This document shows positions 35,069 through 58,299 of a DNA stretch of 64,000 nt, piece by piece (position 1 is the first letter of the stretch; every line of letters starts with the position of its first letter). The translations under genes were made by a program, and so were the position numbers. Under the pieces are notes generated by a model, which was not told the origin of the DNA, did not search any database, and was given only the letters and a program-made list of their open reading frames with translations. The stretch comes from Ignavibacteriota bacterium (GTDB lineage Bacteria; Bacteroidota; Ignavibacteria; UBA10030; CAVZMI01): NCBI GenBank assembly GCA_963776275.1, contig CAVZMI010000012.1:9836-73835 (forward strand), written 5' to 3'.

Positions 35069-35135
35069 AAATTGTGAATTGTGAGTTGTGAATTGTGAAT
35101 GTTGATCAAAGCCTGTTAAAGGAAAATCGTTCGGG

Positions 35136-35405
35136 TTGAAATGCGATGCAATTGTTTTTCCTTAGATTGTTCCCCTTCCCGTCCTGCTTATTGCAGGACG
35201 GGACTCGGGGAACGGGCTCTTTCAACAGCCAGGTTGCCGAGCGGATTGAAGGAGCATTTTATAGAGCTAGTCGAGGCAACCATAGAAGAATCCGATTGAA
35301 ATGCGATGCAATTGTTTTTCCTTAGGATGTTCCCCTCGGCTAGCAACCGAGATGGCTTGTTATATCCGCTCGGGGGGTGGCTCTTTCAACAGCTAGGTTC
35401 CCGAG
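35136..35405. repeat. Tandem ~100-bp direct repeat pair (possible MITE ends)
   Basis: 30-bp identity 35136-35165 / 35296-35325, then GGCTCTTTCAACAGC at 35215 and 35379. Confidence 0.75.
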
Positions 35406-35609
35406 TCCAATCCTGACGATCTATACTAAATACGCTATGACACGGCTTAGAGATAAGCGAGACGGAAGTCGAGGATCCGGTATTCACCAAGGGGGTGTTG
35501 TATTTGTACGGGAAACTTTTATCTTCATAGCGTATCCTCTTTATAAATAAGGCATTCTCCAATTTATCATGGATAGGTATCGGCATTCTGAACTTCTTAC
35601 AGGGGATCT

Positions 35610-36407
35610 ATGAATATTCACAGAGCAGATCGTGGAATTTTATTTATCCTTATTTTAATGATAAACTGTGTAGAGTGCGGAGAACAAAAGAGCGTTCATC
35701 CGGTCATTGCATTCATCAGGACTGGAGTATGGTCAATCTATAAGGGGCCGGAAATAGTTGTCTATGATGATGGAATGGTGTTGCTCCAAAAGAATACTCG
35801 ACATTGGCCGATCGAATATTCTTCCTTCACACTCAAGAAGCATGAGATGGATGTTCTTCTGACCTCTTTGAGATTATTCGATACCGAAAGGGTGAAAGAT
35901 ACTCTGTATAATTTAATTGATGCTTATGATCTCGATGAACAATGGTTGGTAGTCTCACTACCATACAAGGTAGCTATCGGGATCTATGGCGATATTCCGG
36001 CATACGACAGTTCTGAAAACCGTGTCAGCATCCCGAAAAATATTCTACATCTGTTTCATTCAATTCTTGCGTTGAAAGGCAGGCAATCCACACAGTGGTC
36101 TGCAGAAGTCTTTGAAGTGTCTGTATATTCACGTACCGGGAAAAGCGAAGGGGAACCGGTCATTGAATGGCCCCGGGATTGGCCGCATCTGAATGATCCG
36201 AGGGTGATGAAGCTGGGAGATTTCGGCTATCGATTCCTTCTACAAGGTGTATCGGCCGATACTTTACAGGCGATGTATCCTGAAATTGGTAAAGCGAAGC
36301 CGGTGAGAATCGACGGTCAACTTTATCATATTAATTATCGGCCCCTGGTACCGGAAGAAGGATCGATCCTTCAAGAAGTGAAACGGGCAAAAATACGTTT
36401 ATGGTGA
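35610..36407 (+). CDS. Hypothetical exported protein
   Basis: 265-aa ORF, RBS-like AGGGG, hydrophobic N-terminus. Confidence 0.65.
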   Translation: MNIHRADRGILFILILMINCVECGEQKSVHPVIAFIRTGVWSIYKGPEIVVYDDGMVLLQKNTRHWPIEYSSFTLKKHEMDVLLTSLRLFDTERVKDTLYNLIDAYDLDEQWLVVSLPYKVAIGIYGDIPAYDSSENRVSIPKNILHLFHSILALKGRQSTQWSAEVFEVSVYSRTGKSEGEPVIEWPRDWPHLNDPRVMKLGDFGYRFLLQGVSADTLQAMYPEIGKAKPVRIDGQLYHINYRPLVPEEGSILQEVKRAKIRLW

Positions 36408-36743
36408 TCGGTTTTTTCCGCTTGCATCCGGATCATCCAAAAAATCTGAGGGGCGGCTTGTAAATTGTGAATTGCGACCTGTCCGCCGATTTATCCGCCG
36501 GAGCGAAGCGAAGGCGGACGAAGGTGGAGTTGTGAATTGTGAATGGTGAGTGTTTATCAAAGCCTATTAAGGGAAAACCGAGCACTACATATTGCATTAT
36601 AATACGCGGTGTTGTTTTATTTTTATACATGACAAAAAGAAAATACCTTAATATGATCAACGGAACAATCATTCTTATGCTATTGTTTTATACTATACAG
36701 AGGATACTTCAATTATCGTAGACATTTCTTGAGGTCAGATACA

Positions 36744-37940
36744 ATGCCTGACTACCAGTATCTTATTGTAGGTGGTGGAATGACGGCAGATGCGGCAATC
36801 CGTGGAATACGGCAAACAGATCGCTCAAATCCAATCGGAATTCTCTCCAATGAAAAGCATCTTCCGTACAAACGCCCTCCTCTTTCAAAAGCGCTCTGGA
36901 AAGAAGAGCCCATAGAAAAAATCTGGCTCAGGACTCCGAAAGAGAATGTGGATATTTTTACGTCAAGGACAGTGACAAAAATCGACCCGAAGAGTCATAC
37001 CGCCGTTGACGATCTGGGATTAATCTATTCATACAAGAAACTTCTCCTGGCGACCGGAGGAACGGTGCGCCGTTTACCATGGAACATCGATGGGATAATC
37101 TATTTCCGGACACTCGATGATTATTACTCGCTGAGAGAACTGGCGGCTGAAAGAAAGGACTTTGCCGTCATCGGTGGAGGATTTATCGGCTCGGAAATAG
37201 CTGCTGCTCTCACAATGAACGATCGATCGGTCACAATGATATTTCCGGAGGAGGGAATAGGATTCCGTCTCTTCCCGCCCGCGCTGTCCCGGTACCTGAA
37301 CACACTCTATGAAACAAAAAACAATAAAGTACTTGCCAGCGACGGCGTCGTTAAAATCGGGAAAGAACATAATAAGTATGTTCTCACGACGACAAGTGGG
37401 AAGATTATCAAAGCCGACGGAGTCGTCGCAGGAATCGGTATCCAACCGAATATCGAACTGGCGCAAGCCGCCGGATTGGCTGTGGGGAATGGAATCATCG
37501 TCAACGAATTTCTGCAGACCAGTCAGCCCGATATTTATGCCGCGGGTGACGTTGCCAATTTCTATAATCCCGCACTGGATAAACATATCCGACTCGAGCA
37601 CGAAGACAACGCAATTATCATGGGCGAATATGCAGGAAGGAATATGGCCGGTGATATCGTCCGGTATCACCATCTTCCGTTTTTTTATTCCGATCTATTT
37701 GAATTGGGGTACGAAGCGGTCGGCGAGCTCGATTCGCGATATGAGATGGTTGAGGATTGGAAAGAACCGTACCGCGAAGGAGTCGTTTATTATCTGAATG
37801 AACAGCGTATCCGCGGAGTGCTCCTGTGGAACACATGGGGACAGGTAGACGCCGCGCGCAGTTTGATAGCCGAAAAAGTGCCCGTTCACCCCGATCAATG
37901 TAATAGGGAGGTTGCCTGCATAAAACAGTCCCCCCTCTGA
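36744..37940 (+). CDS. FAD/NAD(P)-dependent oxidoreductase (ferredoxin reductase-like)
   Basis: GGGMTA, YKRPPLSK, IGGGFIGSE, IYAAGDVA, PFFYSD; the downstream duplicate suggests the true C-terminus is EKGPFTPINVIGRLPA (stop ~37923). Confidence 0.9.
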   Translation: MPDYQYLIVGGGMTADAAIRGIRQTDRSNPIGILSNEKHLPYKRPPLSKALWKEEPIEKIWLRTPKENVDIFTSRTVTKIDPKSHTAVDDLGLIYSYKKLLLATGGTVRRLPWNIDGIIYFRTLDDYYSLRELAAERKDFAVIGGGFIGSEIAAALTMNDRSVTMIFPEEGIGFRLFPPALSRYLNTLYETKNNKVLASDGVVKIGKEHNKYVLTTTSGKIIKADGVVAGIGIQPNIELAQAAGLAVGNGIIVNEFLQTSQPDIYAAGDVANFYNPALDKHIRLEHEDNAIIMGEYAGRNMAGDIVRYHHLPFFYSDLFELGYEAVGELDSRYEMVEDWKEPYREGVVYYLNEQRIRGVLLWNTWGQVDAARSLIAEKVPVHPDQCNREVACIKQSPL

Positions 37941-38049
37941 GGGGGGCTTGACCTGAGTGAGTCCCGACGTTTTGTGTCGGGGCGAGTCGAAGGATGGACG
38001 ACCGAAGGTCGGCTGGGGTGTGTAAGATAGCGCATTACTACCACCTTAC

Positions 38050-38239
38050 TTGCTTTTTACCCGCCCTCTTCTTATACTCTTCGCAGTACCTCTCGAGATG
38101 CGATAAAGATATACGATTGGATATGCTTAACCGGTCATAGTTAAAAGAAATAAAAACGCTACCCCGATTTAAGGGGACTAATTCGTTGTACGGTAAAACT
38201 GTACCGCTACGCGGTATTGCGTTGTTATACGAATTAGCT
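38050..38239 (+). promoter_or_regulatory. Repeated platform copy 1: sigma70 promoter + structured leader + attI-like site
   Basis: TTGCTT 38050-55, N17, TATACT 38073-78; ends GTTGTTATACGA-ATTAGCT. Confidence 0.65.
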
Positions 38240-38300
38240 GCCATTGCCCTTTGAACTTACTTAAAAATAACCGACTAAATATTTCTTAAAAGGTAAGACT

Positions 38301-40109
38301 ATAAAAAGGAACTTAATAATCACTATAGTAATATATTTACTTGTTCTTATACCTTCAAGAGCAAGCGAATCCACTAACATGCTTAATCTGTATGACATTC
38401 GAGGTAGGTTCGTCGGCAGTATTGGTAATCCCAATTCGTTTACCACAATTCAAGCTCTTGTGACGCCGTCTCCTATCAAGGTTATGTACAACAACCAAAT
38501 TCTTAACATTGCCACCGGTTTTTACTATGCAATTCCTTCAAAACTTGATACGATGTCGGTAAAATCATTTTTGAGTAAGGGATTTGGTTTTGAAGACGTA
38601 ACCTCGTCTTTTCTCCCTTCTCAACAGTGGGATGCCGTGGACATTGCGACCTTCAACGTCAATCGTGACGGGAAGGAAGATATCATATTTTCATTGAACA
38701 GAGTCTACTGTGATAGTATTACCGATAAGCGTCCTCGTGTTTGGGTGCAAACCGATCAAGGACAGTTTGTCGACGAAACCGAAATGAGAATTCCCCCGGG
38801 TCGATACGCAGCAGATCAAATTATCCTTTTCGATTGCGACAACGATAGCGATATCGATATCTTCTTGACAGGCTGGGGCTGTAACGATGGATTTCCTTCG
38901 GCCACCCTGCTCATAAACAACGGTGCGGGGGTCTTTACAGATGAATCCATTACTCGACTTCCATCATCTCATTTGATATACTCGGCGGCCGTAGGACAAA
39001 TCGATAACAATATATCACCTGATCTTCTAGTGGTCGATTGGACTCCGACTGAGCCGACAACTCGCCAATTTGCTCATCCATTGGTATGGCTTAATAATGG
39101 GAATGGTGTTTTCACTCTTGACACCCTGGGTAGATTTAAAGAAAGCGACTATGGTTACTTCATTCCCATAATAGTCGACGTTAATAAAGATACACACAAT
39201 GACGTCGCTTTTGCAAATATGAAAGTGTACATTACCCAAAACGACCCTACTCCGAGAGACTCGCTCAGTGGTCAAACTGCTCTTTATATTAACAATGGTG
39301 AAGGGTTCTTCGAAGACGAAACAGCGGAACGTATTCCTTCCGAGCTCACGTCAAGTACACGTAAGTTGGCCAACGCGGATATAGATCGAGACAACGACGA
39401 AGATTTAGTCCAGATTATATACCAATCGAACCCCGAGAGTTCTTATTGCAGACTTCTTTTGAATGATGGTACCGGACACTTTTCAGTTGCACCTAACGCC
39501 TTCGGGGAGAATATCGCCGGCTGGTTCAACGATGTCGTCATTGGTACGTTGAACGACGATCAGTATCCGGATATGTTTTTACCCAGAGTAATACCTGGCC
39601 AGGTTTACTACGATGTTCTTCTGATCAACAATGGAAATGGTTCATTCTCCGATTCCAGCTCTCTTCTTCCATCAGGCGCGGATTTCAGTACTGCCGCTGC
39701 CTTCTTTGATCATGAAAATGACGGCGATGAGGATATAATTATCGCCAATTGTGGTCCTCGCGTTGACACGACAGGTCAAAATGTTTTATACCATAACACA
39801 TTATATACTAGTGTAAGTGTCCATAATGATGAACCGGCGGCCCCAAAAGAATTCCGATTATGGCAGTGTTATCCCAACCCGTTCAATCCAACTACTAATA
39901 TTTCATTTAGTATCCCCCAAAATTCTCTCGTTTCATTAAACATTTTTGATCTTTTGGGAAGCGAAGTTGCAAAATTGATCAACGAAGAAATGTCGACTGG
40001 AAGCTACTCTAAGCAATGGAATGCGGAAGGATTGCCAAGCGGCGTGTATTTTTGTCGATTGCAGGCAGGTTCCTTTGTGGCTTCAAAGAAATTAGTTTTA
40101 TTACGATGA
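38301..40109 (+). CDS. FG-GAP/VCBS-repeat protein with T9SS-type C-terminal domain (cassette)
   Basis: DxDxDxDxD and LxINNGxGxFxD repeats; YPNPFNP...KKLVLLR; in-frame signal peptide begins at ATA 38301. Confidence 0.85.
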   Translation: MKRNLIITIVIYLLVLIPSRASESTNMLNLYDIRGRFVGSIGNPNSFTTIQALVTPSPIKVMYNNQILNIATGFYYAIPSKLDTMSVKSFLSKGFGFEDVTSSFLPSQQWDAVDIATFNVNRDGKEDIIFSLNRVYCDSITDKRPRVWVQTDQGQFVDETEMRIPPGRYAADQIILFDCDNDSDIDIFLTGWGCNDGFPSATLLINNGAGVFTDESITRLPSSHLIYSAAVGQIDNNISPDLLVVDWTPTEPTTRQFAHPLVWLNNGNGVFTLDTLGRFKESDYGYFIPIIVDVNKDTHNDVAFANMKVYITQNDPTPRDSLSGQTALYINNGEGFFEDETAERIPSELTSSTRKLANADIDRDNDEDLVQIIYQSNPESSYCRLLLNDGTGHFSVAPNAFGENIAGWFNDVVIGTLNDDQYPDMFLPRVIPGQVYYDVLLINNGNGSFSDSSSLLPSGADFSTAAAFFDHENDGDEDIIIANCGPRVDTTGQNVLYHNTLYTSVSVHNDEPAAPKEFRLWQCYPNPFNPTTNISFSIPQNSLVSLNIFDLLGSEVAKLINEEMSTGSYSKQWNAEGLPSGVYFCRLQAGSFVASKKLVLLR

Positions 40110-40121
40110 ACGTGCAACTGC

Positions 40122-40224
40122 ACATAATAGATAGCGGGCACTACGACGTGAAGAACACTCAAGCCCGCAGTCATTTACAAAAGTTTTGGTATACGGGACT
40201 GCGTAGTGCCCGCACACGTTAATT
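40122..40224 (+). other. attC-like site
   Basis: ACATAAT..GCGGGCACTACG (40134-45) ... CGTAGTGCCCGC (40202-13) ACAC GTTAATT. Confidence 0.75.
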
Positions 40225-40302
40225 TTAAATTTGCCAGCCCATCGAGTAAACCAGCTATGTCCAAAGTTGTCTAAACGTGTTTGATGCGTAGAAAAGAATG
40301 TT

Positions 40303-42502
40303 TTGAACAGAGGAGGCTTCTTTATCATGAGACCTTGTTTTTGCTTTTTTGTCTCCTTGCTCGTTTCAACCTCCGCCATCTGGGGGCAAAGCCAGTTTAC
40401 CGCGTTTGTCGTGGATAGCACGAGCGGAGAACCGATTGCGGGTGCAAACGTGTTGGTGACTGGCACTAATTTGGGCGCAATGACGGACACAATTGGTAAA
40501 GTGACGATTGCGGGGATTCCAAATGGCCCGCAGAAAATAATTATTTCCTGCGTCGGTTACAAAACTCGTGCGCTCGTGATTGATTTCCCTTTAGCCGAAG
40601 CAACACAAACCATCCAGGTGACGCTGAGCCAGACAAATATTGAGCTTGAAGAAGTGACCGTGACCACCGCGAGGACGAGTTACCATCTTTACGACGCGCC
40701 TGTGCGCATTGAAGTCAAGGGAGAAGAAGACATCGGCGAGACAATGATCGACCATCCTTCAAGCATCTCGGAACTTTTTCTAGAATCAACAGGGATACAG
40801 GTTCTGCAAACGTCGGCGGTATCGAACTATGTCAGCATCAAACTTCAGGGACTTGACGGAAGTTACACTCAAATACTTAAGGACGGTTTTCCACTATACG
40901 GAGGACTTTCAGCTGGATTAAGCGTAACACAAATTCCACCACTTGACCTGAATCGAGTTGAGGTAGTGAAAGGCTCCATCATCCTCACTCTATGGTGGTG
41001 GCGCGATTGCGGGAATCATCAATCTAATCTCGAAGAAGCCAGCCGAAAATGGACAACTCACGTTCCTTCTTAACGGAACCAGCTCGCTCGGAATTGATGC
41101 CGGCGCATTTTACTCGAAACAAGGGGACAATACAGGTTTTACTATGCTTCTTAATGGGAACGTAAACGCTGCATACGATGCTGATCAAACCGGTTTTTCT
41201 GACATTCCAAACAGGAAGCTCTTAACCATCAATCCAAAAATCTTCTATAATCTCAATGACGACACAAAAATTATGTTTGGGCTTTCCACGACCTATGAGA
41301 ATCTAACGGGCGGTGATATGACAGCGCTGAGAGATGGGGCAAGCACTTTTCATCCATACATCGAGAAGAGCAAGTCAAATCGGTCATATACGCAATTGGA
41401 ATTGACCTCCCTCCTGGGTGGTGCTTCGATCAGTTTCAAGAACAGCATCGGCTATTTCTATTTGAGCAGGTCGCTGAAGTCGGACCGTTTTGAAGGAACA
41501 CAGTGGACCAGTTATACTGAATTCTCAGCACAGATGAAATTGGGTAAGCATACTTTGACCGGCGGACTGAATTTGACTACAGAGAGTTTCTCTGATAATC
41601 CGGTGTACAGCGGCGTGGACAGAAGCTTCGGTCGATGAACCGCAGGTCTGTTCGGACAAGACGATTGGCAGATCGCTTTGCCATTCACTTTGGAAACGGG
41701 TTTGAGAGTCGATCGGGAAAATCTCTATGGTTTTCAGTTGGTGCCACGGATTGCGGGAATATACCGTCTCAGCGATGAAGTCGGACTCAGGGCAAGTGCT
41801 GGACTGGGATACAAAGTGCCGACAATCTTCTCCGACCAGTCGGATCCAGACGTAATCTATAAACTCAATCCGGTCGGAAGCAATGTTACAGTAGAGAAAT
41901 CTATAGGTGGGGAGTTTGATTTTACTTACAAGGTCATAGCTTTCGGAGAAATGTCCCTCATTCTCAATCAGGCATTTTTCTACACGCGGGTTAACAATCC
42001 CATCCTGCTGACTGCCGAATCAACACCTGCCAGCTTGTCTCTGGCAAATGCGAATGGATACCTCTTTAGTAGGGGAGCCGAAACGGATATTAAAATCGCT
42101 TACGGTGACTTGGAGGCGTTTATCGGCTACACATTCACGGATGCCCAAAAAAGATTTTCCGAATCACACGGTGAGCTTTTCTTAGCGCCCCCTCATAAAT
42201 TTGTGATGGACGTTTTGGTCGACCTGGAAGAGTTCGGCGAGGGTGGCATCGAACTTCGTTATATTGGTCGCCAGCTTCTTCATGATGGAACGAAGTCGCC
42301 TGAATTTTGGGTGCTTGATATCTTGTTTCAAAAGAAATTCTCGCATTTCACATTTTTTGTTGCAGTCGAAAACCTGTTGAGTTACAAGGAGGCAAACTAT
42401 GCTCCAGTTGTTACAGGCGGCAGCGTGAACCCGCAATTCAACGATGTGTGGGCACCGCTCGAAGGACGTGTCGTGAATGCAGGGTTGAAATTTCAGATGT
42501 GA
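40303..42502 (+). pseudogene. TonB-dependent receptor cassette (frameshift near 40980, in-frame TGA at 41636)
   Basis: CarboxypepD-like N-terminus, IPPLDLNRVEVVKG plug motif, C-terminal WAPLEGRVVNAGLKF. Confidence 0.8.
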
Positions 42503-42779
42503 AACTGAAGCTCAGGGATTGAATAAATAACCAATGGGCCGGCAAACTTCAGCTAACGACACAAACCACGATCCCGATAAAGAACATCGGGACAGGCACT
42601 CGCTTTGTTGAGAAGGAGTATGGTTCGACAAGTGATATTTTAGAAAGATATGTCGGGACATATATGAGGTCAGATATTAACAGATTTAATATTTATGTCA
42701 CATGAGAAATAATATTTTAGCACGAAATTATCGAAGAAGTGCAATAGCACCTTTTTTTATAATACAGGTTTTATTTTTC

Positions 42780-43231
42780 TGGGGACAAGTAGACGCCGCG
42801 CGCAGTCTGATAGCCGAAAAGGGTCCGTTCACCCCGATCAATGTTGTCGGGATGTTACCTGCATAAAACAGTCCCCTCTCTGAGGGGGGCTTGACCTGAG
42901 TGAGTCCCGACGTTTTGTGTCGGGGCGAGTCGAAGGATGGACGACCGAAGGTCGGCCGGGGTGTGTAAGATAGCGCATTACCACCACCTTACTTGCTTTT
43001 TACCCTCGCTCTTCTTAAACTCTTCGCAGTACCTCTCGAGATACGATAAAGATATACGATTGGATATACTTAACCGGTCATAGTTAAAAGAAATAAAAAC
43101 GCTGTTCAGATTTATCGCGACTACTTCGTGGTACGGTGAAACAGTCCCGCTTCGCCGTCCTAAAGGACTGCTACGCTGAGCTCAGCGAGGCGAGACCGTT
43201 TCACGGTATTGCGTTGTTACATGAGTTAGTT
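42780..43231 (+). repeat. Platform copy 2 (duplicate of 37836-38239 including oxidoreductase 3' end)
   Basis: Near-identical to copy 1; TTGCTT 42993, TAAACT 43016; ends ATGA-GTTAGTT 43225. Confidence 0.9.
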
Positions 43232-43265
43232 GCCATGCTTCTGAAGAAAAGGAGGAGTGATTACT

Positions 43266-44150
43266 ATGAACATGAAATTCCACATCCACTGTGCGCTTTT
43301 ATTCTTGCTAGTCATCCCCTGCTATGCTTCTTGTCAACAGAAAGATATGGCAAAAGCGCGCATTGTACTTCAGACAAATTCAATGAACAATGTCATCATC
43401 AAACGGGGCGTTGTATATCGTACCGCTGGAAAAGTTTCACTTTCAATGGACTTATATTACCCAGCGAGTATAGATCGCTCTGCCAACTATCCCCTCGTAG
43501 TCTTTGTATTCGGCTTTCCCGATACCGTTATGTACAAGATGATCGGCACGAAGATGAAGGATATGGGTCAGTATGTTTCTTGGGCGCAACTCATAGCTTC
43601 ATCTGGACTTGCTGCGCTGACATACGAAACACTCGATCCTGCATCAGATATTAAGAACGTCATTCAATATGTTCGAGCCAACGCTTCCGCTTTGCAAATC
43701 GACGCAAGTAGAATCGCACTCTGGTCTTGTTCAGGCAATGTTCCAACGGCGTTGTCTTTCCTGACTAAGCAATCGAATGACTACCTCAGGTGTGTGGTTT
43801 TCTACTATGGGATCACACTGGAACTCCCGGGTTCGACCAAGGTTTCTGAATTAGTAACCAAGCGTGGATCAACATTTCCAGCAATCCTGAACACACCTGA
43901 CACGTTGAGGTGGGATGTCCCGACCTTCTTAGTAAGAGCAGGGCTCGACAACGTCCCATATCTCAATGAGGCGCTCACTCGCTTCATTACTCTCGCGATA
44001 TCCAAGAATGCACCACTGCACCTTCACAATTTGCCTAACGCTCAGCACGGTTTCGATGTCTGGGATAACAACGATAACTCGCGTGACACCATCGAACGTA
44101 CAGTGGAATTTGTTAAGTATTATCTTCTATCACAGAAGCATGGCAACTAA
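43266..44150 (+). CDS. Alpha/beta hydrolase (cassette)
   Basis: MDLYYP, IALWSCSGN nucleophile elbow, HGFD; stop TAA lies in AACTAAC. Confidence 0.8.
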   Translation: MNMKFHIHCALLFLLVIPCYASCQQKDMAKARIVLQTNSMNNVIIKRGVVYRTAGKVSLSMDLYYPASIDRSANYPLVVFVFGFPDTVMYKMIGTKMKDMGQYVSWAQLIASSGLAALTYETLDPASDIKNVIQYVRANASALQIDASRIALWSCSGNVPTALSFLTKQSNDYLRCVVFYYGITLELPGSTKVSELVTKRGSTFPAILNTPDTLRWDVPTFLVRAGLDNVPYLNEALTRFITLAISKNAPLHLHNLPNAQHGFDVWDNNDNSRDTIERTVEFVKYYLLSQKHGN

Positions 44151-44276
44151 CAAGCGTGTTTACGATGCTCACTTTTTATAGAAGTAATATTGTGTTCGCT
44201 CCATCCCGTTTGCCGCAAAATGAATTTGTTTATCATAGCGGTAAACGGGACGGCGTAAACACGCTAAACGCTAGTT
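44145..44276 (+). other. attC-like site
   Basis: AACTAAC, AGCGTGTTTACG (44153-64) / CGTAAACACGCT (44254-65) perfect IR, inner TCCCGTTTGCCGC/GCGGTAAACGGGA, core GCTAGTT. Confidence 0.85.
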
Positions 44277-44438
44277 GCAATTTCCTCATACTCTTTATAA
44301 AAAGAGCACAAATTATGCGTGGGTTATTGTGCTTAATTTATTATGCATTTTTATTTCTTCAATACTGACTGCCCAATGGATCCAAACCAACGGCTCCTAT
44401 GGCGCGATTATTAACTGCCTCGTCGAAAGGAGAGCGCT

Positions 44439-45950
44439 ATGAACGTTCGATCTGTCTGCAGAGTCATTGTGCTGCCTGCTTTACTGCTTTTCTCCAAGTC
44501 GGAGTCATTCGCACAGGACGCGATTGCGCACGCGGGACAACAACTCATCAACCGTATTTACCGAGGTTTTCAACAACCGAGCTACGATGGCTCTTTTGAC
44601 TTCACGATTACTGAAATCGTGCATTGTTTCGAGATAGGCTACCTCAATGTCGCAATTGACTTGAATGGAGATAGCACAATTGACAGCTACTCAATTATGG
44701 GTGGTGGGACTCAAAATGAGTGGATCATCCGGAATATTCCTATTTCAATGACGACCGAGATATTTTCTGAACCGACCATAAGCGTCTGGTTTGATTTCAG
44801 TGACAACATCCCGATTCCCAGTACGGCAGATTACGCAATGATCATTACTGAGCAACCGGTGTCTATCACTATGCCAATACAAATTGAGAAACTTTCAACG
44901 TGGGATCGATCTACAGCGGACATTGTCGGCGCGGACTGGGGAACACTCGACACTATGGGTCAGAATCTGATCGAGTTCGCGCCGGTAACACCGCCCACCA
45001 TTGGTGCTGGTCCAGTCATGTTGGAAAATCCTGGTCCGGGAGATAGCCTCGGTGTTCCCGACATAGCCCAGAAACTGAATGAGTGCGGCCCGACTTCAGC
45101 GGCCAACTCTTTGATTTGGTTGGCAAAAAAAAACAAATTCACCGACAAGCTACCCAAAAAGCAAGACGGTTCCCTGGACACCAACCAGGTGATTCTGGAC
45201 CTGATGAAAGCAATGACAGGATCTAACGCTCGCCCCTTTGGAGGAATACAGGAGAATCAGTTGTTTACAGGGAAGGAACAGTACATTCAGAATAAATCGC
45301 TGCCGTTATCAGTTGAGGGCGGCAAGTTGGACACGAATGCGCGAGGTGCAAAGACCTATGATTTCATGGTGAAGCAGCTCACGAAGGGACAGGATGTCGA
45401 ACTCCTAATTTTGTGGCCTGGTGGTGGTGGACACTGTGTTACTGTGACAGGTTATGCAATTGCTCTTGGAAGGGCATTTGTTTTCGTGCACGACCCAGAC
45501 GACAAGAAAACCGCGAAAGTGGTCTGGGAATTCGCCGTCGATGGTACTGGCAGGGTCACCGGAGACATTACTGCACCAAGGGCGTGCAAAGCGGCGTGGG
45601 CTGTCGCTGAATCGCCTAGTCCTGACGTAGGCATTGAAGCGCTGCCAAGTTTGCCGAAAGGGTTCGCGCTTTATGACAACTATCCGAACCCGTTCAATCC
45701 ATCAACAATAATTTCTTTTGATCTACCGACACGATCATTTATATCGTTGAAGGTATTTGATTTGATAGGAAGAGATGTGGCAACAATTGTCTCTGAAGAA
45801 TTACCGGAAGGCAAATACACACAGCAATGGAATGCGGCAGGATTTCCAAGCGGAGTATATTTTTACCGTTTATCCGCCTATCCTCTGGAAAGTCGAGACA
45901 GGCAGGCAGGTAAATTCACCGAGACGAAGAAACTTATTTTACTCAGATAG
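44439..45950 (+). CDS. Secreted papain-fold (C39-like) cysteine peptidase with T9SS-type CTD (cassette)
   Basis: QKLNECGPTSAAN, GGHCVTVTGY, VHDPD; YPNPFNP CTD; signal peptide. Confidence 0.7.
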   Translation: MNVRSVCRVIVLPALLLFSKSESFAQDAIAHAGQQLINRIYRGFQQPSYDGSFDFTITEIVHCFEIGYLNVAIDLNGDSTIDSYSIMGGGTQNEWIIRNIPISMTTEIFSEPTISVWFDFSDNIPIPSTADYAMIITEQPVSITMPIQIEKLSTWDRSTADIVGADWGTLDTMGQNLIEFAPVTPPTIGAGPVMLENPGPGDSLGVPDIAQKLNECGPTSAANSLIWLAKKNKFTDKLPKKQDGSLDTNQVILDLMKAMTGSNARPFGGIQENQLFTGKEQYIQNKSLPLSVEGGKLDTNARGAKTYDFMVKQLTKGQDVELLILWPGGGGHCVTVTGYAIALGRAFVFVHDPDDKKTAKVVWEFAVDGTGRVTGDITAPRACKAAWAVAESPSPDVGIEALPSLPKGFALYDNYPNPFNPSTIISFDLPTRSFISLKVFDLIGRDVATIVSEELPEGKYTQQWNAAGFPSGVYFYRLSAYPLESRDRQAGKFTETKKLILLR

Positions 45951-45985
45951 GGCAACTGAAACTAACAGTTGTAATTTCGCCAACG

Positions 45986-46302
45986 TTGGAAAGAACCGTA
46001 TCGCGAAGGAATCGTTTATTATCTGAATGATCAGCATGTTTGCGGAGTGCTCCTGTGGAATACATGGGGACAGGTAGACGCCGCGTGCAGTCTGATAGTT
46101 GAAAAATGTCCGTTCAACCCAATCAATGTTGTTGGGAGATTACCTGAAAAAAAAGTCCCCTCTCTTATAGAGAGGGGTGGACGACAGAAGGTCGGCCGGG
46201 GTGTGTAAGATAGCGCATTACACTCCCACCCCCATACTTGCTTTTTACCCCCGCCCTTCTTATACTCTTCGCAGTACCTCTTGAGATGCAATAAAGATAT
46301 AC
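45986..46302 (+). repeat. Platform copy 3 (duplicate of 37757-38115, truncated before attI-like end)
   Basis: Oxidoreductase 3' end plus TTGCTT 46238-N17-TATACT 46261. Confidence 0.9.
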
Positions 46303-46357
46303 AAACAATTGTTTTGAACAATAGATGTTGCTGGGAAAATAATAATAAGGTATTAAA

Positions 46358-46639
46358 ATGTATGACCGCATTCTTCACCGAATGAAAGAAAAAATTCGCA
46401 CCCGGCAATATGTCATGACGATTCACGCCGAGGAGGAGAAGGATGCAGATGGATTGGGTATTTTGGATGTTGAAAACTGTATCCTGACGGGACAGATTGT
46501 GGGGCGATAGAAAGATAAAGTTACCTCAGAATGGAAGTACCGCATCACGGGTAAAAGTATGTCCGGGCATAGAATGGAGTTAATTGTTAAAATTAGTCCA
46601 ACTGGAAAATTGGTAATAATTACAGTATATTTATCTTAA
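46358..46639 (+). pseudogene. DUF4258-type putative toxin with internal TAG (46508)
   Basis: My translation: YVMTIHAEEE..DVENCILTG..*..KYRITG..LVIITVY. Confidence 0.75.
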
Positions 46640-46661
46640 TAGACAAAAGCAGAAATATATT

Positions 46662-46889
46662 ATGAAATGTGACATTTGCGGCAAAGACGGTGCGAAAGTA
46701 AGACGGGTGGCTCGCACCTACGGCAAAGGGAAACGATTGTTAGTCATCGAGAATGTGCCTGTAGTGTCGTGTCCTAACTGTGGTGAAAGCTACTTGACTG
46801 CTGAGACCCTTCATGAAATAGAGCGACTCAAGGCACATCAGAAAAGTCTGGCCTCAGAACGACGGGTACGGACTTTAGCATATGCCTAG
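46662..46889 (+). CDS. YgiT-type zinc finger / MqsA-family antitoxin
   Basis: CDIC...VIENVPVVSCPNCGESY. Confidence 0.85.
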   Translation: MKCDICGKDGAKVRRVARTYGKGKRLLVIENVPVVSCPNCGESYLTAETLHEIERLKAHQKSLASERRVRTLAYA

Positions 46890-47384
46890 GACCCGCGTTG
46901 ACTGAGCGTAGCACGCTGTACTTCAATCCCGCTTCCCGTTCATGGGAAGCGGGACTTTCTGTCACTTTCTTTTTCTAAAAGAAAGTGACACTTGTGTCGA
47001 GCATCAGTCGAGACACTAGTGCCTTGGCAACCATTAAATTTTACAAATGAGTTTGTTTTTGTGGAGGAGATGCTTCTATATTGTTTTTTCCATAGTAAAA
47101 AAATCCTCGAGGACAAAATCGCTGGAGCGCGGCGGGAAGAAGGGGGGGCGTGTGTAGGCGCCATTTTGTGCGTTTCGATCGAGGCATATGGAAAGACATA
47201 TAATAAGGCCGAGATCGACGGATTCGCGATTGCCATTTTAATAGCGTGTGAAGGAGGCCACTTCACGCGGGTTGCGATTTTGTCAGCGCATATTAACGAA
47301 CTTAGAATTTATTACCAGTGCGCAGTACCTTTAGGTGCAGGCTTTCTTTCTGTCACTTTCTTTTCCTAAAAGAAAGTGACCCCC

Positions 47385-47646
47385 TACCCCCATACTTGCT
47401 TTTCACCCCCGCTCTTCTTATACTCTTCGCAATACCTCTCAAGATACTATGAAGATGTACAATTGTATATACTTAACCGGTTACAGTCAAAAGAAATGAA
47501 AACGCTATCCCGATTTATGGGGACTACTTTGTGGTACGGTGAAACAGTCCCGCTTCGCCGTCCTAAAGGACTGCTACGCTGAGCTCAGCGAGGCGAGACC
47601 GTTTCACGGTATTGCGTTGCTTGCGGTGTTTAGGAGATCGTTAAGG
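47385..47646 (+). repeat. Platform copy 4
   Basis: TTGCTT 47396-N17-TATACT 47419; same leader as copy 2 including its insert; diverges at ~47619 before GTTAAGG 47640. Confidence 0.88.
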
Positions 47647-47648
47647 AC

Positions 47649-48476
47649 ATGATCGCATACCTCATCTTGGTGCATCGGTATCCCGGCCAGTTCAAAAGAC
47701 TCTTTAGGGCAATTTACCATCCCGCCAACTACTACTTGGTACATGTGGATAAGAGATCAGGCATTGGATTACAGACGGAGATACAAGATTTCTTGTCAAG
47801 CTTTGCCAACGCATCCTTGCTGAAAAGCCAAAGCACTCTTTGGGGGGGATACAGCCTGGTAGATGTTGAATTACGAGGCATCGAGGAGTTATTGAAGATC
47901 GGCTCGGAATGGGAATTCTTCATAAACCTTAGCGGACAGGATTTCCCACTAAAGTCGCAGACGCACATCCAAGACTTTCTTAGTCGCAATATAGGAAACG
48001 ATTTCATCAGGGTGGCTAACCAGAGCAAGATACGCCCTGATACACTATCTCGAATCGAGAACTACTGTATCGAATTTAGCAACAGGATACTACGCACTTT
48101 TATCAAGCGACCGTATCTTCGAGGCGTGACGCCTTATATCGGAAATCAGTGGATGATCTTTAGTAGGAAGTTCTGTGAATATATATGCTGCAGCCCTGAG
48201 CTCGAAAGGTTCAAGAGATTCTATCGGCACACCTTCATATCTGATGAAGGATTCTTTCAGACGGTAATAATGAACACTAGCTACAAGGCAACTATCGTGA
48301 ACGACGATAAAAGGACAATTGTGTGGGTGCCGATGGGAACAATAAAGTTACGTCCGAGAGACTTCACATCCAAAGACGCCGAATTCTTGCTAGCAAGTCA
48401 AGGCTTGTTTGCCCGCAAATTCGACGAAACCGTTGATGCAGGAATCTTGAGTATATTGGAGTCGAATCTATCGTAG
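47649..48476 (+). CDS. Core-2/I-branching (GT14) beta-1,6-N-acetylglucosaminyltransferase-like protein
   Basis: IAYLILVH, HVDK, WGGYSLV, INLSGQDFPLK, GNQW, DEGFFQT, FARKFD. Confidence 0.85.
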   Translation: MIAYLILVHRYPGQFKRLFRAIYHPANYYLVHVDKRSGIGLQTEIQDFLSSFANASLLKSQSTLWGGYSLVDVELRGIEELLKIGSEWEFFINLSGQDFPLKSQTHIQDFLSRNIGNDFIRVANQSKIRPDTLSRIENYCIEFSNRILRTFIKRPYLRGVTPYIGNQWMIFSRKFCEYICCSPELERFKRFYRHTFISDEGFFQTVIMNTSYKATIVNDDKRTIVWVPMGTIKLRPRDFTSKDAEFLLASQGLFARKFDETVDAGILSILESNLS

Positions 48477-48692
48477 CCATTTTAACTTATCACGAAGGGC
48501 GGGCTAACACGCGGCTGGAGCCGACCGCCGGAGCGTACGGGTTTAGAGACTTTGGTGCATTCTTCACCGCAACGCAACGAACACATAACAACCAAAACAC
48601 CGACGCTCAATCTTCCCGCCAGAAAGCGGCGGGACACAGAAAACGTGTTTGATATGAATTTGCGCCACTAGAAGGTATGAGTGACGGGTGGA

Positions 48693-49001
48693 TTATGCCA
48701 TCATACGGGAGAGTGTTCTTCGCGATGCTCCAAGAGTCAACAATGAACGAATAAGCAAATCCAATGAAACCGATGGATCGCCCGATTCCATTTTCGCTAC
48801 TCTTGACTGGCTGGATTTTATCATCTTCGCGAGTTTTTCTTGTGTTATTTTTTTCTGTCGACGGGTATTCTGAAGATTCTTACCCAACAATAATTTCAAC
48901 TCGACATAAGCAACTTCTTCCGGTGAAAGGTTCAAGAATTCTTTTGCATCTCCAATCACCCAGCCTTTATTTTCGAGACGTTTTTTCTTATTATTATTCA
49001 T
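48693..49001 (-). CDS. XRE-family HTH antitoxin
   Basis: GWVIGDAKEFL, TQEKLAKMIKSSQSRVAKME, SLDLLIRSL. Confidence 0.85.
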   Translation of the reverse strand: MNNNKKKRLENKGWVIGDAKEFLNLSPEEVAYVELKLLLGKNLQNTRRQKKITQEKLAKMIKSSQSRVAKMESGDPSVSLDLLIRSLLTLGASRRTLSRMMA

Positions 49002-49016
49002 GGTTATACTCCATTT

Positions 49017-49346
49017 TTAGTTATCATACACTCGCATTCTACGCTTACAATTATCAATAACGCTTTTCGGAGTGCGCTGTGCTTTCTTCTCAAATACTTC
49101 CAATATCACAATTGCATCCGGATCAATTCGATATACAATGCGCCAGATTTTTTCTCGATCATTTATTCGTAGTTCATGACACCGTACACCTATTCCAGGC
49201 ATCGGTCGCGAATGGGGTAATGTCAGATGAATACCCATTTGGAGCTGTCGTAATAAATACCCAGCATCAATACGAGCAGCGCTAGATAACGGCGGAGTTT
49301 TTATCTCGCCGTGTAACCAAACGATCGGTTTATCATGACTTTTCAT
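49017..49346 (-). CDS. RelE/ParE (HigB/Gp49-like) toxin
   Basis: PHSRPMP, CHELRI, WRIVY, ILEVFEKK..TP; upstream of HTH gene. Confidence 0.85.
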   Translation of the reverse strand: MKSHDKPIVWLHGEIKTPPLSSAARIDAGYLLRQLQMGIHLTLPHSRPMPGIGVRCHELRINDREKIWRIVYRIDPDAIVILEVFEKKAQRTPKSVIDNCKRRMRVYDN

Positions 49347-49619
49347 GCATGTTCAATATATGTCATTTTTGACATAATGTCAAATAAGTAGTGCGTTATT
49401 TTGCGACACATATAATAAGGCCGAGATCGATGGATTCGCGGTTGCCATCGCAACAGCGCGTGAAGGAAGCCACATCAAGAAGCGGGTTGCTGGGCCAGAG
49501 GCCCATCCGCCTTTGGCGGAGATTTTGTCTCCCGATTCCCGTTCATGGGAAGCGGGACTTTCTGTCACTTTCTTTTTTTAAAAGAAAGTGACACTTGTGT
49601 CGAGCATCAGTCGAGACAC

Positions 49620-49773
49620 CACCCCCATACTTGCTTTTTACCCCCGCTCTGCTTATACTTTTCGCAGTACCTCTCGAGATACGATGAAGATGTACGATAG
49701 TCAAAAGAAATAAAAACGCTATCCTGATTTATAGGGGCTACTTCGTGGTATTGAGTTGTTACGTGAGTTAGCC
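49620..49773 (+). repeat. Platform copy 5 (internally deleted)
   Basis: TTGCTT 49631-N17-TATACT 49654; ends GTTGTTACGTGA-GTTAGCC 49767. Confidence 0.88.
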
Positions 49774-49804
49774 ACCATTGGTCACTTTGGAAGGGATAAT
49801 CTCG

Positions 49805-50302
49805 ATGGAAACTATACAGAGCCAGTCATCAACCCTGATATCAGGATGGAGTATTTCTATTCCTGTTTCAACATACCTTCTTTATTGTGCAATGGTATCT
49901 GTTGCAGTAAGGATAGTTCTGTCTACTTTCAAGGCCCTCGCAATCTCCGGCGGTGAGCACTTGGACGCAAGTGATATGACTCCTTCCAAAGCCGGGGACA
50001 ATTCTATTATTGATGCATCTTTTGGCAAACGGTGGTTGACTGCTTTCTGGGGATTCTCAAGTCATAGGAATATCCGGGACTATTGGCTACCTGCGATCAT
50101 CGGGTTCTGCGAAATGGCTGCATACCCTGTGTTGCTTTTCACGAACGAAGCTGCTGTGATAGGCGGTTGGCTTGCCATCAAAACAGCTGGACAGTGGGGC
50201 GTATGGGAGAGATCACGCACTGCTTTCAATAGGTTCCTCGTCGGAAACCTGGTGGTGCTTGCCATTTCGTTCTTCTGGTTACTTCGATACATTTCACGGT
50301 GA
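49805..50302 (+). CDS. Hypothetical membrane protein (cassette)
   Basis: Several TM segments; bounded by complementary ends 49767-85 / 50309-27. Confidence 0.7.
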   Translation: METIQSQSSTLISGWSISIPVSTYLLYCAMVSVAVRIVLSTFKALAISGGEHLDASDMTPSKAGDNSIIDASFGKRWLTAFWGFSSHRNIRDYWLPAIIGFCEMAAYPVLLFTNEAAVIGGWLAIKTAGQWGVWERSRTAFNRFLVGNLVVLAISFFWLLRYISR

Positions 50303-50320
50303 TTGAACGTGACCAACGGC

Positions 50321-50452
50321 AGCTAACACCGAAAAACTACGACATTCACTTTGTCGATAGTATTGAGTTGAGTTCACTCCACACTTTTGCTCACATCGAA
50401 TGAATCATTAATAGTTCGCAAAAGTACGGCGTAGTGCTTACACACATTGTGC
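50321..50452 (+). other. Degenerate attC-like site
   Basis: AGCTAAC..ACTACG ... CGTAGT..ACAC ATTGTGC. Confidence 0.6.
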
Positions 50453-50509
50453 GCAATGCCTGCATTAAGAAAAAGAGTTAGAGTTCAATGTAGAAATAAC
50501 GAGATTACC

Positions 50510-54427: not shown

Positions 54428-54677
54428 ATTCTAATGATTGGGCACTGCGCACAACAACAGCAAAAACTGTTCGCCCCGCAATCCTTCGACAAGCTCAGGA
54501 TCACGCGGGAGTTTGGGTTCTTACACTCTATCACTGAAATGGTTCGCTTACGCTAAAGCTCCGGCAAAAAGGCTCGCCTCGTTCCGCTCGGCGGAGCGGG
54601 TTGGCTCTTGAATTTGTACAGAGCAGTTGCCATGGGTGCATAATTTAATTTTAACATCAATAGGAAGATTCATCCTT

Positions 54678-55214
54678 ATGAAAATCACTGATACCGTTAG
54701 TTGGCATGCCTTCACCTACACTCAACTTTATCCAGCAGTATTGGGATCGATGTTATACGATATTCTTCATTTTCCATCAAAGTGGCATCCTATTAACATC
54801 GTGAAATGGTCACTCACTATCTTCTATTGTATTGACTACTTCAACCTGCATTCTAATCTTAAATCCGACAAGCCTGAAAATGCGAATGCAATTGATATCC
54901 TAATAGATACAGTGGTCGCAATTCTATTTGGTGTCGCTTATTGGCTAGCATATGACGGTGAAACGGCTTTATCGTACTTATTTTTCTTATTGATCACAAT
55001 TCTCTTTATTCTTTATTATTGCCGTTCACCAAGACGAATATATAGAAATCTAGTCTCGATATCTTATTTATCAATACTTGCAGCAGTAGCAACCATTTAT
55101 CATTTTTGTGGTGGACAATTATTATTGCTAATTTGGATGCTGGCTTTGATGCCTGTAATTGTTTATGCTATTTTTGTTTTTCACCTGTCCAATTTCCCTG
55201 TTAAAACGAAATGA
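54678..55214 (+). CDS. Hypothetical membrane protein (cassette)
   Basis: AT-rich polytopic ORF followed by GCAGCTAAT and a hairpin. Confidence 0.65.
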   Translation: MKITDTVSWHAFTYTQLYPAVLGSMLYDILHFPSKWHPINIVKWSLTIFYCIDYFNLHSNLKSDKPENANAIDILIDTVVAILFGVAYWLAYDGETALSYLFFLLITILFILYYCRSPRRIYRNLVSISYLSILAAVATIYHFCGGQLLLLIWMLALMPVIVYAIFVFHLSNFPVKTK

Positions 55215-55258
55215 GTATGACGAGGCAGACAATTGTGATATATCAAAAAGCACACGGC

Positions 55259-55376
55259 AGCTAATGGGCGCAAAAATGTTGGCTATCTAAATTCCAAACG
55301 AACGTTGGGTCGCTCATCCCGTCCCGAGAATCGGGACGGGACGCCCCAACGTCATTTTTGTGCTGCACTTTATGCC
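55259..55376 (+). other. Degenerate attC-like site
   Basis: AGCTAAT, GCAAAAATG ... CATTTTTGTGC, core-like TTTATGCC. Confidence 0.6.
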
Positions 55377-57179: not shown

Positions 57180-57370
57180 TTTTTAGGAGCATATAAAAGA
57201 TGGATATAATTAATATCTGCCCAAAATGTGGAAATCAGGTTATAGAATTCGGGGAAATTACTTTAGGAAATATGATTAATGAAAATATAAAAAAATAACT
57301 TCGTCAACTTGCAAAACATTAGCCGAAAAGCAGCCTAAAGCACTCTTCTTACTCACCCGGAGGATTAGAA

Positions 57371-58219: not shown

Positions 58220-58299
58220 CCTCGGGACAATCGGGATAATACAATGGCGCTTCCGCTCAAAGATAAAGCATGGCGGAAAGGCGTACGCCACATTTTAAA

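Follow-up and report, generated by a model that had tools for sequence, protein, structure and literature searches.

Probable orphan heads of an integron-like gene-capture system, repeated within an integrase-less cassette array of an Ignavibacteriota bacterium

Introduction

Integron platforms, whether of class 1 or of the sedentary chromosomal type, carry the recombination site attI and the cassette promoter Pc beside the integrase gene intI. Integron theory allows one attI and one Pc per array; incoming cassettes are taken up at the front, where they are expressed, and the distal ones are largely silent unless they have a promoter of their own. What is to be made of an array in which a promoter-like element and a site for cassette insertion are repeated? 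Such an array, a cassette run of about 17 kb with five copies of one unit, lies on contig CAVZMI010000012.1 (C12) of an Ignavibacteriota bacterium, within a 64-kb stretch that was analysed as a whole and is called the window here; positions given without a contig are those of the window. The source genome (G000) is a metagenome-assembled genome (MAG) of 38 contigs and 3.7 Mb, 96% complete and with 5.3% contamination. The original prediction, made from the bases of this stretch, was a multi-platform integron, the head of which had been duplicated repeatedly and had loaded different cargo each time.

Several points have to be considered. Are the copies one unit and is it confined to this locus? 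To which class does the site at its end belong, and do cassettes begin there? Is an enzyme at hand? How did the copies arise? We conclude, with a probability of about 0.6, that the units are orphan heads, each a promoter with an attI-type site, of an integron-like gene-capture system.

Results

The repeated unit

An 81-nt core, located with a repeat finder and by alignment, opens each of the five heads listed in Table 1 and is 84-94% identical to that of copy 2. Its first hexamer, TTGCTT, is separated by 17 nt in all five copies from a second, which is TATACT in four and TAAACT in copy 2, and a conserved leader follows, as the original prediction had it. The alignment also upholds what had been said of the individual copies. 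Copies 1, 2 and 5 end in GTTGTTA(T/C)nnGA(A/G)|TTAG, copy 4 keeps the 5′ arm of the terminal site and diverges in the 3′ arm after 47619, and copy 3 breaks off at about 46305, some 40 nt past the second hexamer, without a recombination site. The site loop of head 2, about 105 nt, is enlarged by a GC-rich hairpin of about 30-45 nt (43139-43181), and the same insert is found in the loop of head 4 (47542-47584), where 47629 or 47641 are the candidate junctions. Head 5 has a leader 18 nt shorter than the other copies and a loop of 33 nt.

The pattern TTGCTT-N16-18-TAnAnT-N1-4-TCGCA occurs five times in the 3.7-Mb genome, each time in this array. BLAST gives five long matches, all on C12, to which nhmmer adds three on C15; the full unit is confined to this locus in the source genome, and the idea of a genome-wide miniature inverted-repeat transposable element (MITE) does not hold. 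A MITE or a dispersed repeat of the repetitive extragenic palindrome (REP) type would have terminal inverted repeats, target duplications and many copies throughout the genome whatever the gene context, which does not fit the distribution of the unit, and no conserved ATG-initiated frame is seen on either strand in the five-copy alignment. The GC-rich loop hairpin, on the other hand, is dispersed, with 13 short matches on C8, C18, C20, C23, C26 and C34 and one occurrence, near 53085, in the related genome G001; by appearance it is a small repeat with a habit of insertion into site loops. One further short match in the same search, on C15, involves a different part of the query.

A BLAST search of 81 related genomes with head 1 found matches in two, the source genome and G001, another species of the same genus about 94% identical to it. 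Exact-pattern scans of two public collections (genome_contigs and metagenome_contigs) returned only the G001 contig and a metagenome contig that is identical to the G001 assembly and has the same three unit copies.

An attI-like site at the end of the unit

The site has a 5′ arm CAGT(C/T)AAAAGAA-ATAAAAACGC, a loop of 33-109 nt and a 3′ arm GCGTTGTTA(C/T)-nnGA(G/A)|TTAGnnGCCAT; the same arms are present on contigs C8, C20 and C34 and in G001. An inner-stem pairing (GGGGCTAC.../...GAGTTAGCC), by which the unit end would be an attC, was given up for the outer L″/L′ pairing after alignment of the family sites.

Two models were applied. R1, built from five family sites of the source genome and G001, matched six of the seven full-unit ends in these two genomes (E 1.8e-11 to 7e-6) and missed head 4; in the array it scored head 1 at 2e-8, head 5 at 1.1e-6 and head 2 at 7e-6, with no match to heads 3 and 4. 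R2 is a covariance model of ten sites that abut recombinase stop codons in ten other genomes, with none from the source genome or G001. At E <0.01 it recovers head 2 (3.1e-5), head 1 (4.7e-5) and head 5 (1.2e-3) in the window, all at full length (1-68), the next match having E 0.15. Heads 3 and 4 are unmatched in the window, and so are the cassette sites at 40219, 42608, 44275, 48648, 50368 and 54441. Because R2 matches heads 1, 2 and 5 and no ordinary cassette site, the unit is classed, on the strength of this model, as ending in a recombinase-proximal attI-like site with an enlarged loop and not in a cassette attC, which lends support to the attI-like insertion site that had been proposed.

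R2 also recovers the recombinase-adjacent site of C23 described below, which was outside the training set (E 1.6e-6), and orphan sites on C20, C34 and C8. The three G001 copies (g1, g2 and g3) score about 0.01 for g1 and g2 and 0.29, not significant, for g3. Genome-wide, in a run that missed head 2 and scored, for each genome, 150 of the roughly 1300 candidates from a first look, there are at E ≤0.05 at least ten matches in the source genome, at least five in G001 and at least one in G002, a genome of the next genus. An alignment places the unit 5′ arm (CAGTCAAAAGAAATAAAAACGC) over the 3′ end of the C23 recombinase coding sequence.

Cassettes begin at the unit ends

Several intergenic stretches of the array are predicted to fold as imperfect palindromes ending in GTT. 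The hallmark sought was complementarity between the first bases of a cassette and the 5′ arm of its own 3′ site, and for this 25 nt from each of 16 candidate junctions in the window were compared with the next 6 kb, with 200 shuffles each. The hydrolase cassette behind head 2 starts with GTTAGTTGCCATGCTTCTG, complementary at 19/19 positions to 44133-44151 (score 19, shuffle maximum 13). Behind head 5 the start of the 174-aa-ORF cassette matches its own 3′ arm at 50306-50327 (18/22; score 14, maximum 13). Three other candidates stand at the 95th percentile of the shuffles and the remaining 11 lie below it. Two of these three, the TonB cassette (14/16 at 42534, score 12) and the 1326-aa-protein cassette (13/14 at 54441-54454), have their partners where expected, right after the stop codon of the cassette open reading frame (ORF). 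One of eight candidates in G001 exceeds all shuffles, and this is the cassette behind g3 (17/19; score 15 against 14); the positive control, the first cassette of the C23 head, gives 17/18 (16 against 15).

With cognate matches behind head 2, head 5 and G001 g3, we conclude that the cassette starts coincide exactly with the G|TT at the end of the units, as predicted. The cargo also differs from copy to copy, as claimed: an FG-GAP protein, a hydrolase, a toxin-antitoxin pair, a glycosyltransferase and a membrane protein. Cassette starts complementary to their own 3′ sites and joining at G|TT are features of classical integrons. Folds and cognate tests together identify at least two cassette sites, and there is no integron integrase in the 64 kb, which is the composition of a CALIN, the name for attC sites that cluster where no integron integrase is present.

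The missing recombinase, and complete heads elsewhere

Neither the window nor the G001 locus contains a recombinase or a relic of a classical intI, and a tblastn search of the window with the IntI of G002 gave nothing below E 3; the units are called orphan because the window has no recombinase. Nine proteins of the source genome match the integron integrase model TIGR02249, none above the 265-bit cut-off. The best candidates, on C23 (311 aa, 238 bits) and C22 (274 aa, 221 bits), score 167-179 bits with XerC/XerD models, well under their integron-integrase scores. The C23 protein shares 34% identity end to end with true IntI, apart from some 40 residues missing where IntI has its specific insertion, and both candidates lack this insertion. 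True IntI genes are present in G002, G047 and G077 and absent from G001, and no IntI with the additional domain lies beside the array. Since there is no integrase or relic at the locus, no IntI above the cut-off and only insertion-less candidates, the locus is an integrase-less array with orphan heads and not a classical integron platform. The part of the original prediction that stands is the presence of several heads with an attI-type site and different cargo; the integron in the strict sense does not.

A complete head lies on C23 (233500-236900): promoter, gene for the 311-aa IntI-like recombinase and site are followed, in the same orientation, by at least two cassettes whose 3′ sites are cognate. 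The site is a small hairpin directly 3′ of the gene with the stop codon in its loop, AACAACGC-TATATA-GCGTTGTT-GCAAATG|TTAG. The window units have no recombinase gene directly before the site, the nearest recombinases being those on C22 and C23. C22:9512-12950 is a 98%-identical variant of the C23 head, in which a GIY-YIG nuclease ORF (127 aa) occupies the region of the recombinase C-terminal tail and an IS-type transposase (333 aa) splits the first cassette. This recombinase family is found in 48 of 121 genomes of the order, the source genome included (E ≤1e-60), with many matches at contig ends. Fourteen recombinase loci were fetched, of which the source-genome locus, two with <45 nt downstream and one without the junction motif were left out; all ten that were used have a G|TTA(G/T)nnG(C/T) junction from -4 to +64 nt of the stop codon, in most cases preceded by the short hairpin seen at C23.

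C18 has homologues of the C23 promoter and 5′ leader that lead straight into a site, the recombinase being absent from between them, and the first cassette is cognate at 15/16 positions; this head is a simple deletion derivative of a complete one. At least eight orphan heads are present elsewhere in the source genome, single ones on at least five other contigs, and the architecture is not special to this locus. Nine heads outside the window were examined, and in seven a TTG...N17...TA...T element lies 126-322 nt upstream of the junction. The first cassette of four exceeds every shuffle in the cognate test, two are at the 95th percentile, two show no match and one head is too near a contig end for the test.

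The promoter-like element and its leader

A local promoter form, CTTGnnT-N17-TAnAnT, is found in 7 of 46 tRNA upstream windows of the source genome as against 45 of 20,000 random windows, and all five units, with the motif CTTGCTT-N17-TATACT, fit it. The string TTGCTT-N17-TATACT occurs 13 times in the genome with 0.44 expected: in four units, three times on C15, three times upstream of the C23 recombinase and the orphan sites of C18 and C20, and at three other places. Upstream of the C23 recombinase gene stands TTGCTTTTTA...TTATACTC, in which hexamers and spacing are those of the units, and the alignment of the unit with the C23 promoter region is borderline (score 26, equal to the maximum of 100 shuffles). 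All five units have a + strand gene within 30-150 nt downstream, and terminator-like hairpins stand just upstream of the window heads. The tRNA-window and motif counts speak for the predicted lineage-type promoter-like element upstream of the site, and the units may well act as promoters. The unit promoter also resembles the sequence that precedes the true intI of G002 (CTTGCTTTTT ... TTCGCAGTA), a likeness that is possibly due to chance and was set aside.

The three C15 relatives of the promoter and leader are diverged (nhmmer E 7e-6, 3e-5 and 3e-3) and stand before large ORFs. In C15:57450-64140 each copy lies behind a conserved hairpin (AAAGGTTTCCGTCA...TGACGGAAACCTTT) and about 200 nt upstream of a large ORF that resembles a secreted protein. 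The leaders at other orphan sites are different, and it is only in the C12 array and its G001 counterpart that this leader is combined with this site.

Chromosomal flank carried with the heads

In front of heads 2 and 3, as originally noticed, are fragments of 89 and 169 nt from the 3′ end of the FAD/NAD oxidoreductase gene that borders the array on the left; their identity to the resident copy is 88.9% and 86.4%, and that of the G001 ortholog 90.5%. Heads 1-3 have this chromosomal sequence in common on their left, and an upstream context, termed alpha-type in Table 1, is common to copies 1, 2 and 3 and G001 g2. Both fragments keep the reading frame and stop of the G001 and G002 orthologs. The resident gene has one extra base within 37870-37940, by which its last 20 or so codons are frameshifted relative to copies 2 and 3 and the G001 ortholog; the cause may be a genuine mutation or an error in the MAG consensus. 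Before each fragment stands a cassette 5′ piece, of 172 nt for copy 2 and 17 nt for copy 3. The latter, after the palindrome 45952-45972, resembles the start of the 503-aa-protein cassette and may be a scar.

For copies 2 and 3 the fragments support the predicted derivation of the unit from a chromosomal array head next to the oxidoreductase gene. The putative left junctions (42608, 45969/45986, 46898 and 48648/48659) gave no significant cognate match with the unit 5′ arms, all being at or below the 95th percentile. Because of the fragments on the left and the lack of a significant cognate left junction, the heads appear to have multiplied together with their chromosomal flank and not as cassettes. 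The pattern is that expected if head and flank had been duplicated or imported and then joined illegitimately inside a resident cassette; in-place duplication and import from relatives are not separable from these data. The fragments are as far from the resident gene (86-89%) as the G001 ortholog (90.5%) or further, and only one fragment position clearly shares its state with the G002 outgroup; relaxed selection on the fragments precludes a firm order of events. In G002 the locus of the oxidoreductase ortholog (57% identity) has ordinary genes downstream, with no unit and no array.

The same locus in a second species

Synteny between the source genome and G001 runs up to the oxidoreductase gene (to 37925) and resumes at 55375. 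The segment between these flanks, 17.4 kb in the source genome and 15.6 kb in G001, is mostly different. The G001 locus, independently assembled, has three unit copies; head 1 corresponds to g2, its closest copy (92%), and head 5 with its flank to g3. Head 1/g2, the Gp49/HTH pair and head 5/g3 are common to both genomes, and the cassettes immediately behind the shared heads differ, G001 having other cargo. Given these shared heads and the Gp49/HTH pair with differing cassettes directly behind, the two arrays would have a common backbone on which cargo has turned over at the heads.

Features of the array and its surroundings

The feature coordinates are collected in Table 1. The context termed beta-type precedes head 4 and, with hairpins at 49537-49557 and 49564-49596, head 5; a repeat at 47196-47265 in the head 4 context is also present in the head 5 region. 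Head 3 leads directly into the toxin-antitoxin pair.

Table 1. Coordinates of the heads, cassettes and flanking features of the C12 array
Feature	Position	Strand	Basis
FAD/NAD oxidoreductase gene, 403 aa, resident chromosomal left flank	36729-37940	+	Pfam Pyr_redox_2 1.2e-49, AIF_C; G001 synteny
Alpha-type upstream context of copy 1: terminator-like hairpin 37943-37965 and conserved stretch ending GTGTGTAAGATAGCGCATTAC	37943-38036	+	
Head 1: TTGCTT 38050-38055, TATACT 38073-38078, leader, attI-type hairpin site 38129-38249, crossover first T 38234	38037-38249	+	
Cassette: FG-GAP repeat protein with T9SS sorting tail (38379-40109)	38234-40218	+	Pfam, fold
3′ end of FG-GAP cassette: attC-like palindrome of ~115 nt ending CACACG|TT at 40219		+	
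Cassette: TonB-dependent receptor split in three ORFs (40303-41073, 41144-41638, 41678-42502), own attC	40219-42607	+	Pfam
Short cassette 5′ piece: ribosome-binding site (RBS) and 7-codon ORF, AT-rich, ending abruptly at oxidoreductase fragment; read as a putative deletion or illegitimate-joining scar	42608-42779	+	Sequence
Oxidoreductase 3′ fragment of head 2: last 29 codons, unshifted frame and stop kept	42780-42868	+	
Head 2: TTGCTT 42993-42998, TAAACT 43016-43021, leader, attI-type site 43072-43241, crossover first T 43226	42980-43241	+	
Cassette: alpha/beta hydrolase (43257-44150), own attC 44133-44274	43226-44274	+	Pfam, cognate test
Cassette: 503-aa T9SS-tailed protein (44439-45950), then very short palindrome 45952-45972	44275-45985	+	Pfam, fold
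Oxidoreductase 3′ fragment of head 3, 169 nt	45986-46154	+	
Head 3, truncated: TTGCTT 46238-46243, TATACT 46261-46266, ~40 nt of leader, no site	46225-46305	+	
DUF4258 toxin gene (46358-46636) with in-frame TAG at codon 51; intact MqsA-like antitoxin (46662-46889)	46358-46897	+	Pfam
attC-like palindrome of ~50 nt overlapping antitoxin 3′ end, ending CCCGCG|TT at 46898		+	
Beta-type upstream context of head 4: hairpins 46927-46954 and 46961-46993, terminator-like hairpin 47352-47380	46898-47382	+	
Head 4: TTGCTT 47396-47401, TATACT 47419-47424, leader, site 5′ arm 47483-47505, degenerate 3′ arm	47383-47648	+	
Cassette: Core-2/I-branching-type glycosyltransferase (47649-48476), attC-like palindrome ~48500-48648	47649-48658	+	Pfam 5.3e-39, fold
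Gp49-like toxin (49017-49346) and HTH antitoxin (48693-49001)	48659-49617	-	Pfam; 94% identity to G001
Head 5: TTGCTT 49631-49636, TATACT 49654-49659, attI-type site 49689-49783, crossover first T 49768	49618-49783	+	
Cassette: 174-aa membrane-like ORF (49778-50302), no Pfam family	49768-50367	+	
Cassette: 1326-aa Fn3/T9SS protein (50447-54427), absent from G001	within 50447-55374	+	Pfam, cognate test
Cassette: 195-aa ORF (54627-55214), absent from G001	within 50447-55374	+	

An ORF-less element of about 80 nt (50368-50446, and C9:62293-62372 of G001) is bounded by GTT/ATT junctions and has different neighbours in the two genomes; it could be a tiny gene-less cassette. Further downstream an 88-nt stretch comprising an RBS and about the first 13 codons (MIKATQRKK...) occurs three times (55374-55461, 55832-55919 and 57322-57409) at the head of three different ORFs, among them a Fib_succ_major protein and a PEP-mutase-family protein, all common to G001. 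The first of these copies follows a GCACACG|TT junction in G001, and on this account the cassette array probably extends past 55375.

Beyond the array, a 1.66-kb segment (35084-36744) contains a 265-aa ORF without a known family and a 46-nt direct repeat (35131 and 35291); its equivalent in G001 is 0.65 kb. An ORF for an IS200-like Y1 transposase (58732-59268) has families of GC-rich hairpin repeats on both sides (58295-59630), a layout that recalls a REP-associated tyrosine transposase accompanied by its REPs; G001 lacks the entire segment 58245-59680.

Discussion

Proposed organisation

A complete head, as on C23 and in its relatives, would comprise in order a promoter, the gene for an insertion-less IntI-like recombinase, a hairpin site overlapping the stop codon (...G|TTAG) and the cassettes. 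A window head would comprise a terminator-like hairpin, the CTTGCTT-N17-TATACT promoter, a leader of 60-80 nt and the enlarged-loop site, the recombinase gene having gone. Transcription would start a few bases past TATACT, pass through the site and read the cassettes behind it, with each cassette block re-started and insulated from the preceding one. A recombinase acting in trans, that of C23/C22 in the source genome and none in G001, would insert circular cassettes at the G|TT of the site. Head and flank would have been duplicated, or imported from relatives, by non-site-specific joining, and later deletions may have shortened copy 3 and removed sequence on the left of copies 2 and 3. A more far-reaching version, in which one insertion-less recombinase, encoded elsewhere or borrowed, serves at least ten promoter-equipped sites, four or five of them in the 17-kb array, with new heads copied together with their flank, is put forward tentatively.

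A number of observations weigh against the orphan-head reading. Intact sites are confined to three of the five heads, which also tempers the multi-platform description. The arm pairing has no covariation support among eight copies, with two uncompensated changes and no compensated ones. The FG-GAP cassette behind head 1 gave no cognate match between start and 3′ arm when set against 200 shuffles. R1 found no match in the arrays beside the true IntI genes of G002, G047 and G077, and a motif search there gave nothing convincing, so that the site family is not tied to canonical IntI. G001 has heads and cassette differences yet a recombinase of neither kind; activity in trans is therefore conjectural and the turnover could be homologous exchange. 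The C22 locus may be a strain variant of C23 within a MAG that has 5.3% contamination. As to the promoter, the unit sequences agree with the consensus at only 8 of 12 positions and were not returned by a generic sigma-70 scan, and the whole 80-nt core is conserved, not the hexamers alone, so that conservation by itself does not single out a promoter. Finally, no recombination site was seen with the C15 promoter and leader copies, and for this reason the promoter-leader half and the site half may be independent modules.

Alternative explanations

Could the units be gene-less promoter cassettes with an attC of their own, shuffled by site-specific recombination as in Vibrio superintegrons and Treponema integrons? 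Such cassettes are, in the parts of the reports available, experimentally established (PMC11014356, PMC6557892), and there are hints of cassette junctions on the left. TTGACTG at 46898, right behind the attC-like palindrome that belongs to the toxin-antitoxin pair, is complementary base for base to CAGTCAA, the head 4 5′ arm, and G001 g2 is preceded, 30 nt upstream of the -35 hexamer, by GTGTG|TTAGATAGCGC after an apparent cassette-site 3′ arm. The match at 46898, however, extends to 7 nt only, and no left junction is significantly cognate. Heads 1-3 have chromosomal, non-cassette DNA on their left, and the unit sites fit the recombinase-adjacent model with a 5′ arm fixed across heads, whereas in real cassette sites of the array the 5′ arm is cognate to the start of the cassette concerned. 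Site-specific junctions on both sides together with a self-cognate site, by which a gene-less promoter cassette is recognised, are not found in the units, and we regard this explanation as unlikely.

It is also conceivable that the conserved part is a regulatory promoter and 5′-leader module of a regulon for secreted or accessory proteins, the position of the recombination site being secondary. The three site-less C15 copies before large ORFs would suit this idea, as would a leader as conserved as the promoter hexamers and with a direct repeat in it, GATACGAT-AAA-GATATACGAT, to which a regulator could bind. Yet the genes behind the five copies are functionally unrelated, the whole window has no Rfam match at gathering scores, and a regulon would leave unexplained the site half, the exact cassette junctions and the oxidoreductase fragments; we think it distinctly improbable.

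An assembly artefact, by chimeric joining of strain variants at a repeat, is scarcely credible: the MAG contamination of 5.3% and the 98% identity of the C22 and C23 recombinase loci, from which strain mixtures must be present, would favour one, but the copies differ by 6-16% with unique flanks each, the syntenic locus of the independent G001 assembly contains three copies, two of which pair off as orthologs with copies here (head 1 with g2, head 5 with g3), and the metagenome contig identical to that assembly has the same three.

Implications

If orphan heads are indeed stacked in one array, each block would have its own entry point and transcription start, and the predictions made for cassette expression, for the landing place of new genes and for array growth would change. 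Were the decentralised version also true, capture and expression would take place at many independent heads and not at a single attI/Pc. The locus offers a testable case of whether recombinases without the IntI-specific insertion can run integron-type cassette capture, and, for integrase-less arrays (CALINs), of whether they are dead remnants or have an enzyme that serves them in trans. Together with the complete head of C23 and the deletion derivative of C18, the orphan heads form a natural series.

Comparison with known systems

The likeness to an integron platform lies in a promoter that would read into the site, in cassettes inserted at G|TT and in a folded 3′ site on each cassette with a 5′ arm complementary to the cassette start. 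The differences are considerable. There is no integrase beside the unit site and the candidate enzyme lacks the IntI-specific insertion; the recombinase of the complete head is co-oriented with its cassettes, and its site overlaps the stop codon and is itself a hairpin; five heads, three of them intact, share one array and there are more elsewhere in the genome.

Gene-less promoter cassettes are described from Vibrio superintegrons (Blanco et al. 2024, PMC11014356), and Treponema-type integrons are described as having ORF-less ones (Tansirichaiya et al. 2019, PMC6557892). As far as the available portions of these accounts go, the units resemble them as non-coding array modules with a promoter, here a motif only, on the sense strand that would re-start the downstream cassettes. 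Unlike these attC-bounded cassettes, the units have a chromosomal flank, no cognate left junction and a site of the recombinase-proximal type.

Internal copies of attI occur in mobile integron arrays as delta-attI-type cassettes (Gonzales Machuca et al. 2026, PMC12901181). In common with the units, as judged from the accessible part of that work, these place attI-derived sites inside the variable region of an array where they are usable for recombination, which for the units is a prediction. They differ in being partial attI1 or attI2 sequences that border individual resistance cassettes of class 1 and 2 integrons, in which IntI is present, and the accessible description in PMC12901181 mentions neither a promoter module nor a chromosomal flank, both of which the units have.

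CALINs, clusters of attC sites without an integron integrase, are described as degraded integrons in the IntegronFinder work (PMC9024848), which in the sections available also reports complete integrons in Ignavibacteriae/Chlorobi. The array is like a CALIN from this group in having cassettes and no nearby integrase; promoter-equipped heads of attI type are outside the CALIN definition as given there. In full-text searches, supplementary files being outside their scope, neither stacked heads of promoter plus attI-type site nor integron-type capture by recombinases without the IntI insertion were found described. The new point is the stacking of several heads inside one array, together with the evidence of the chromosomal flank.

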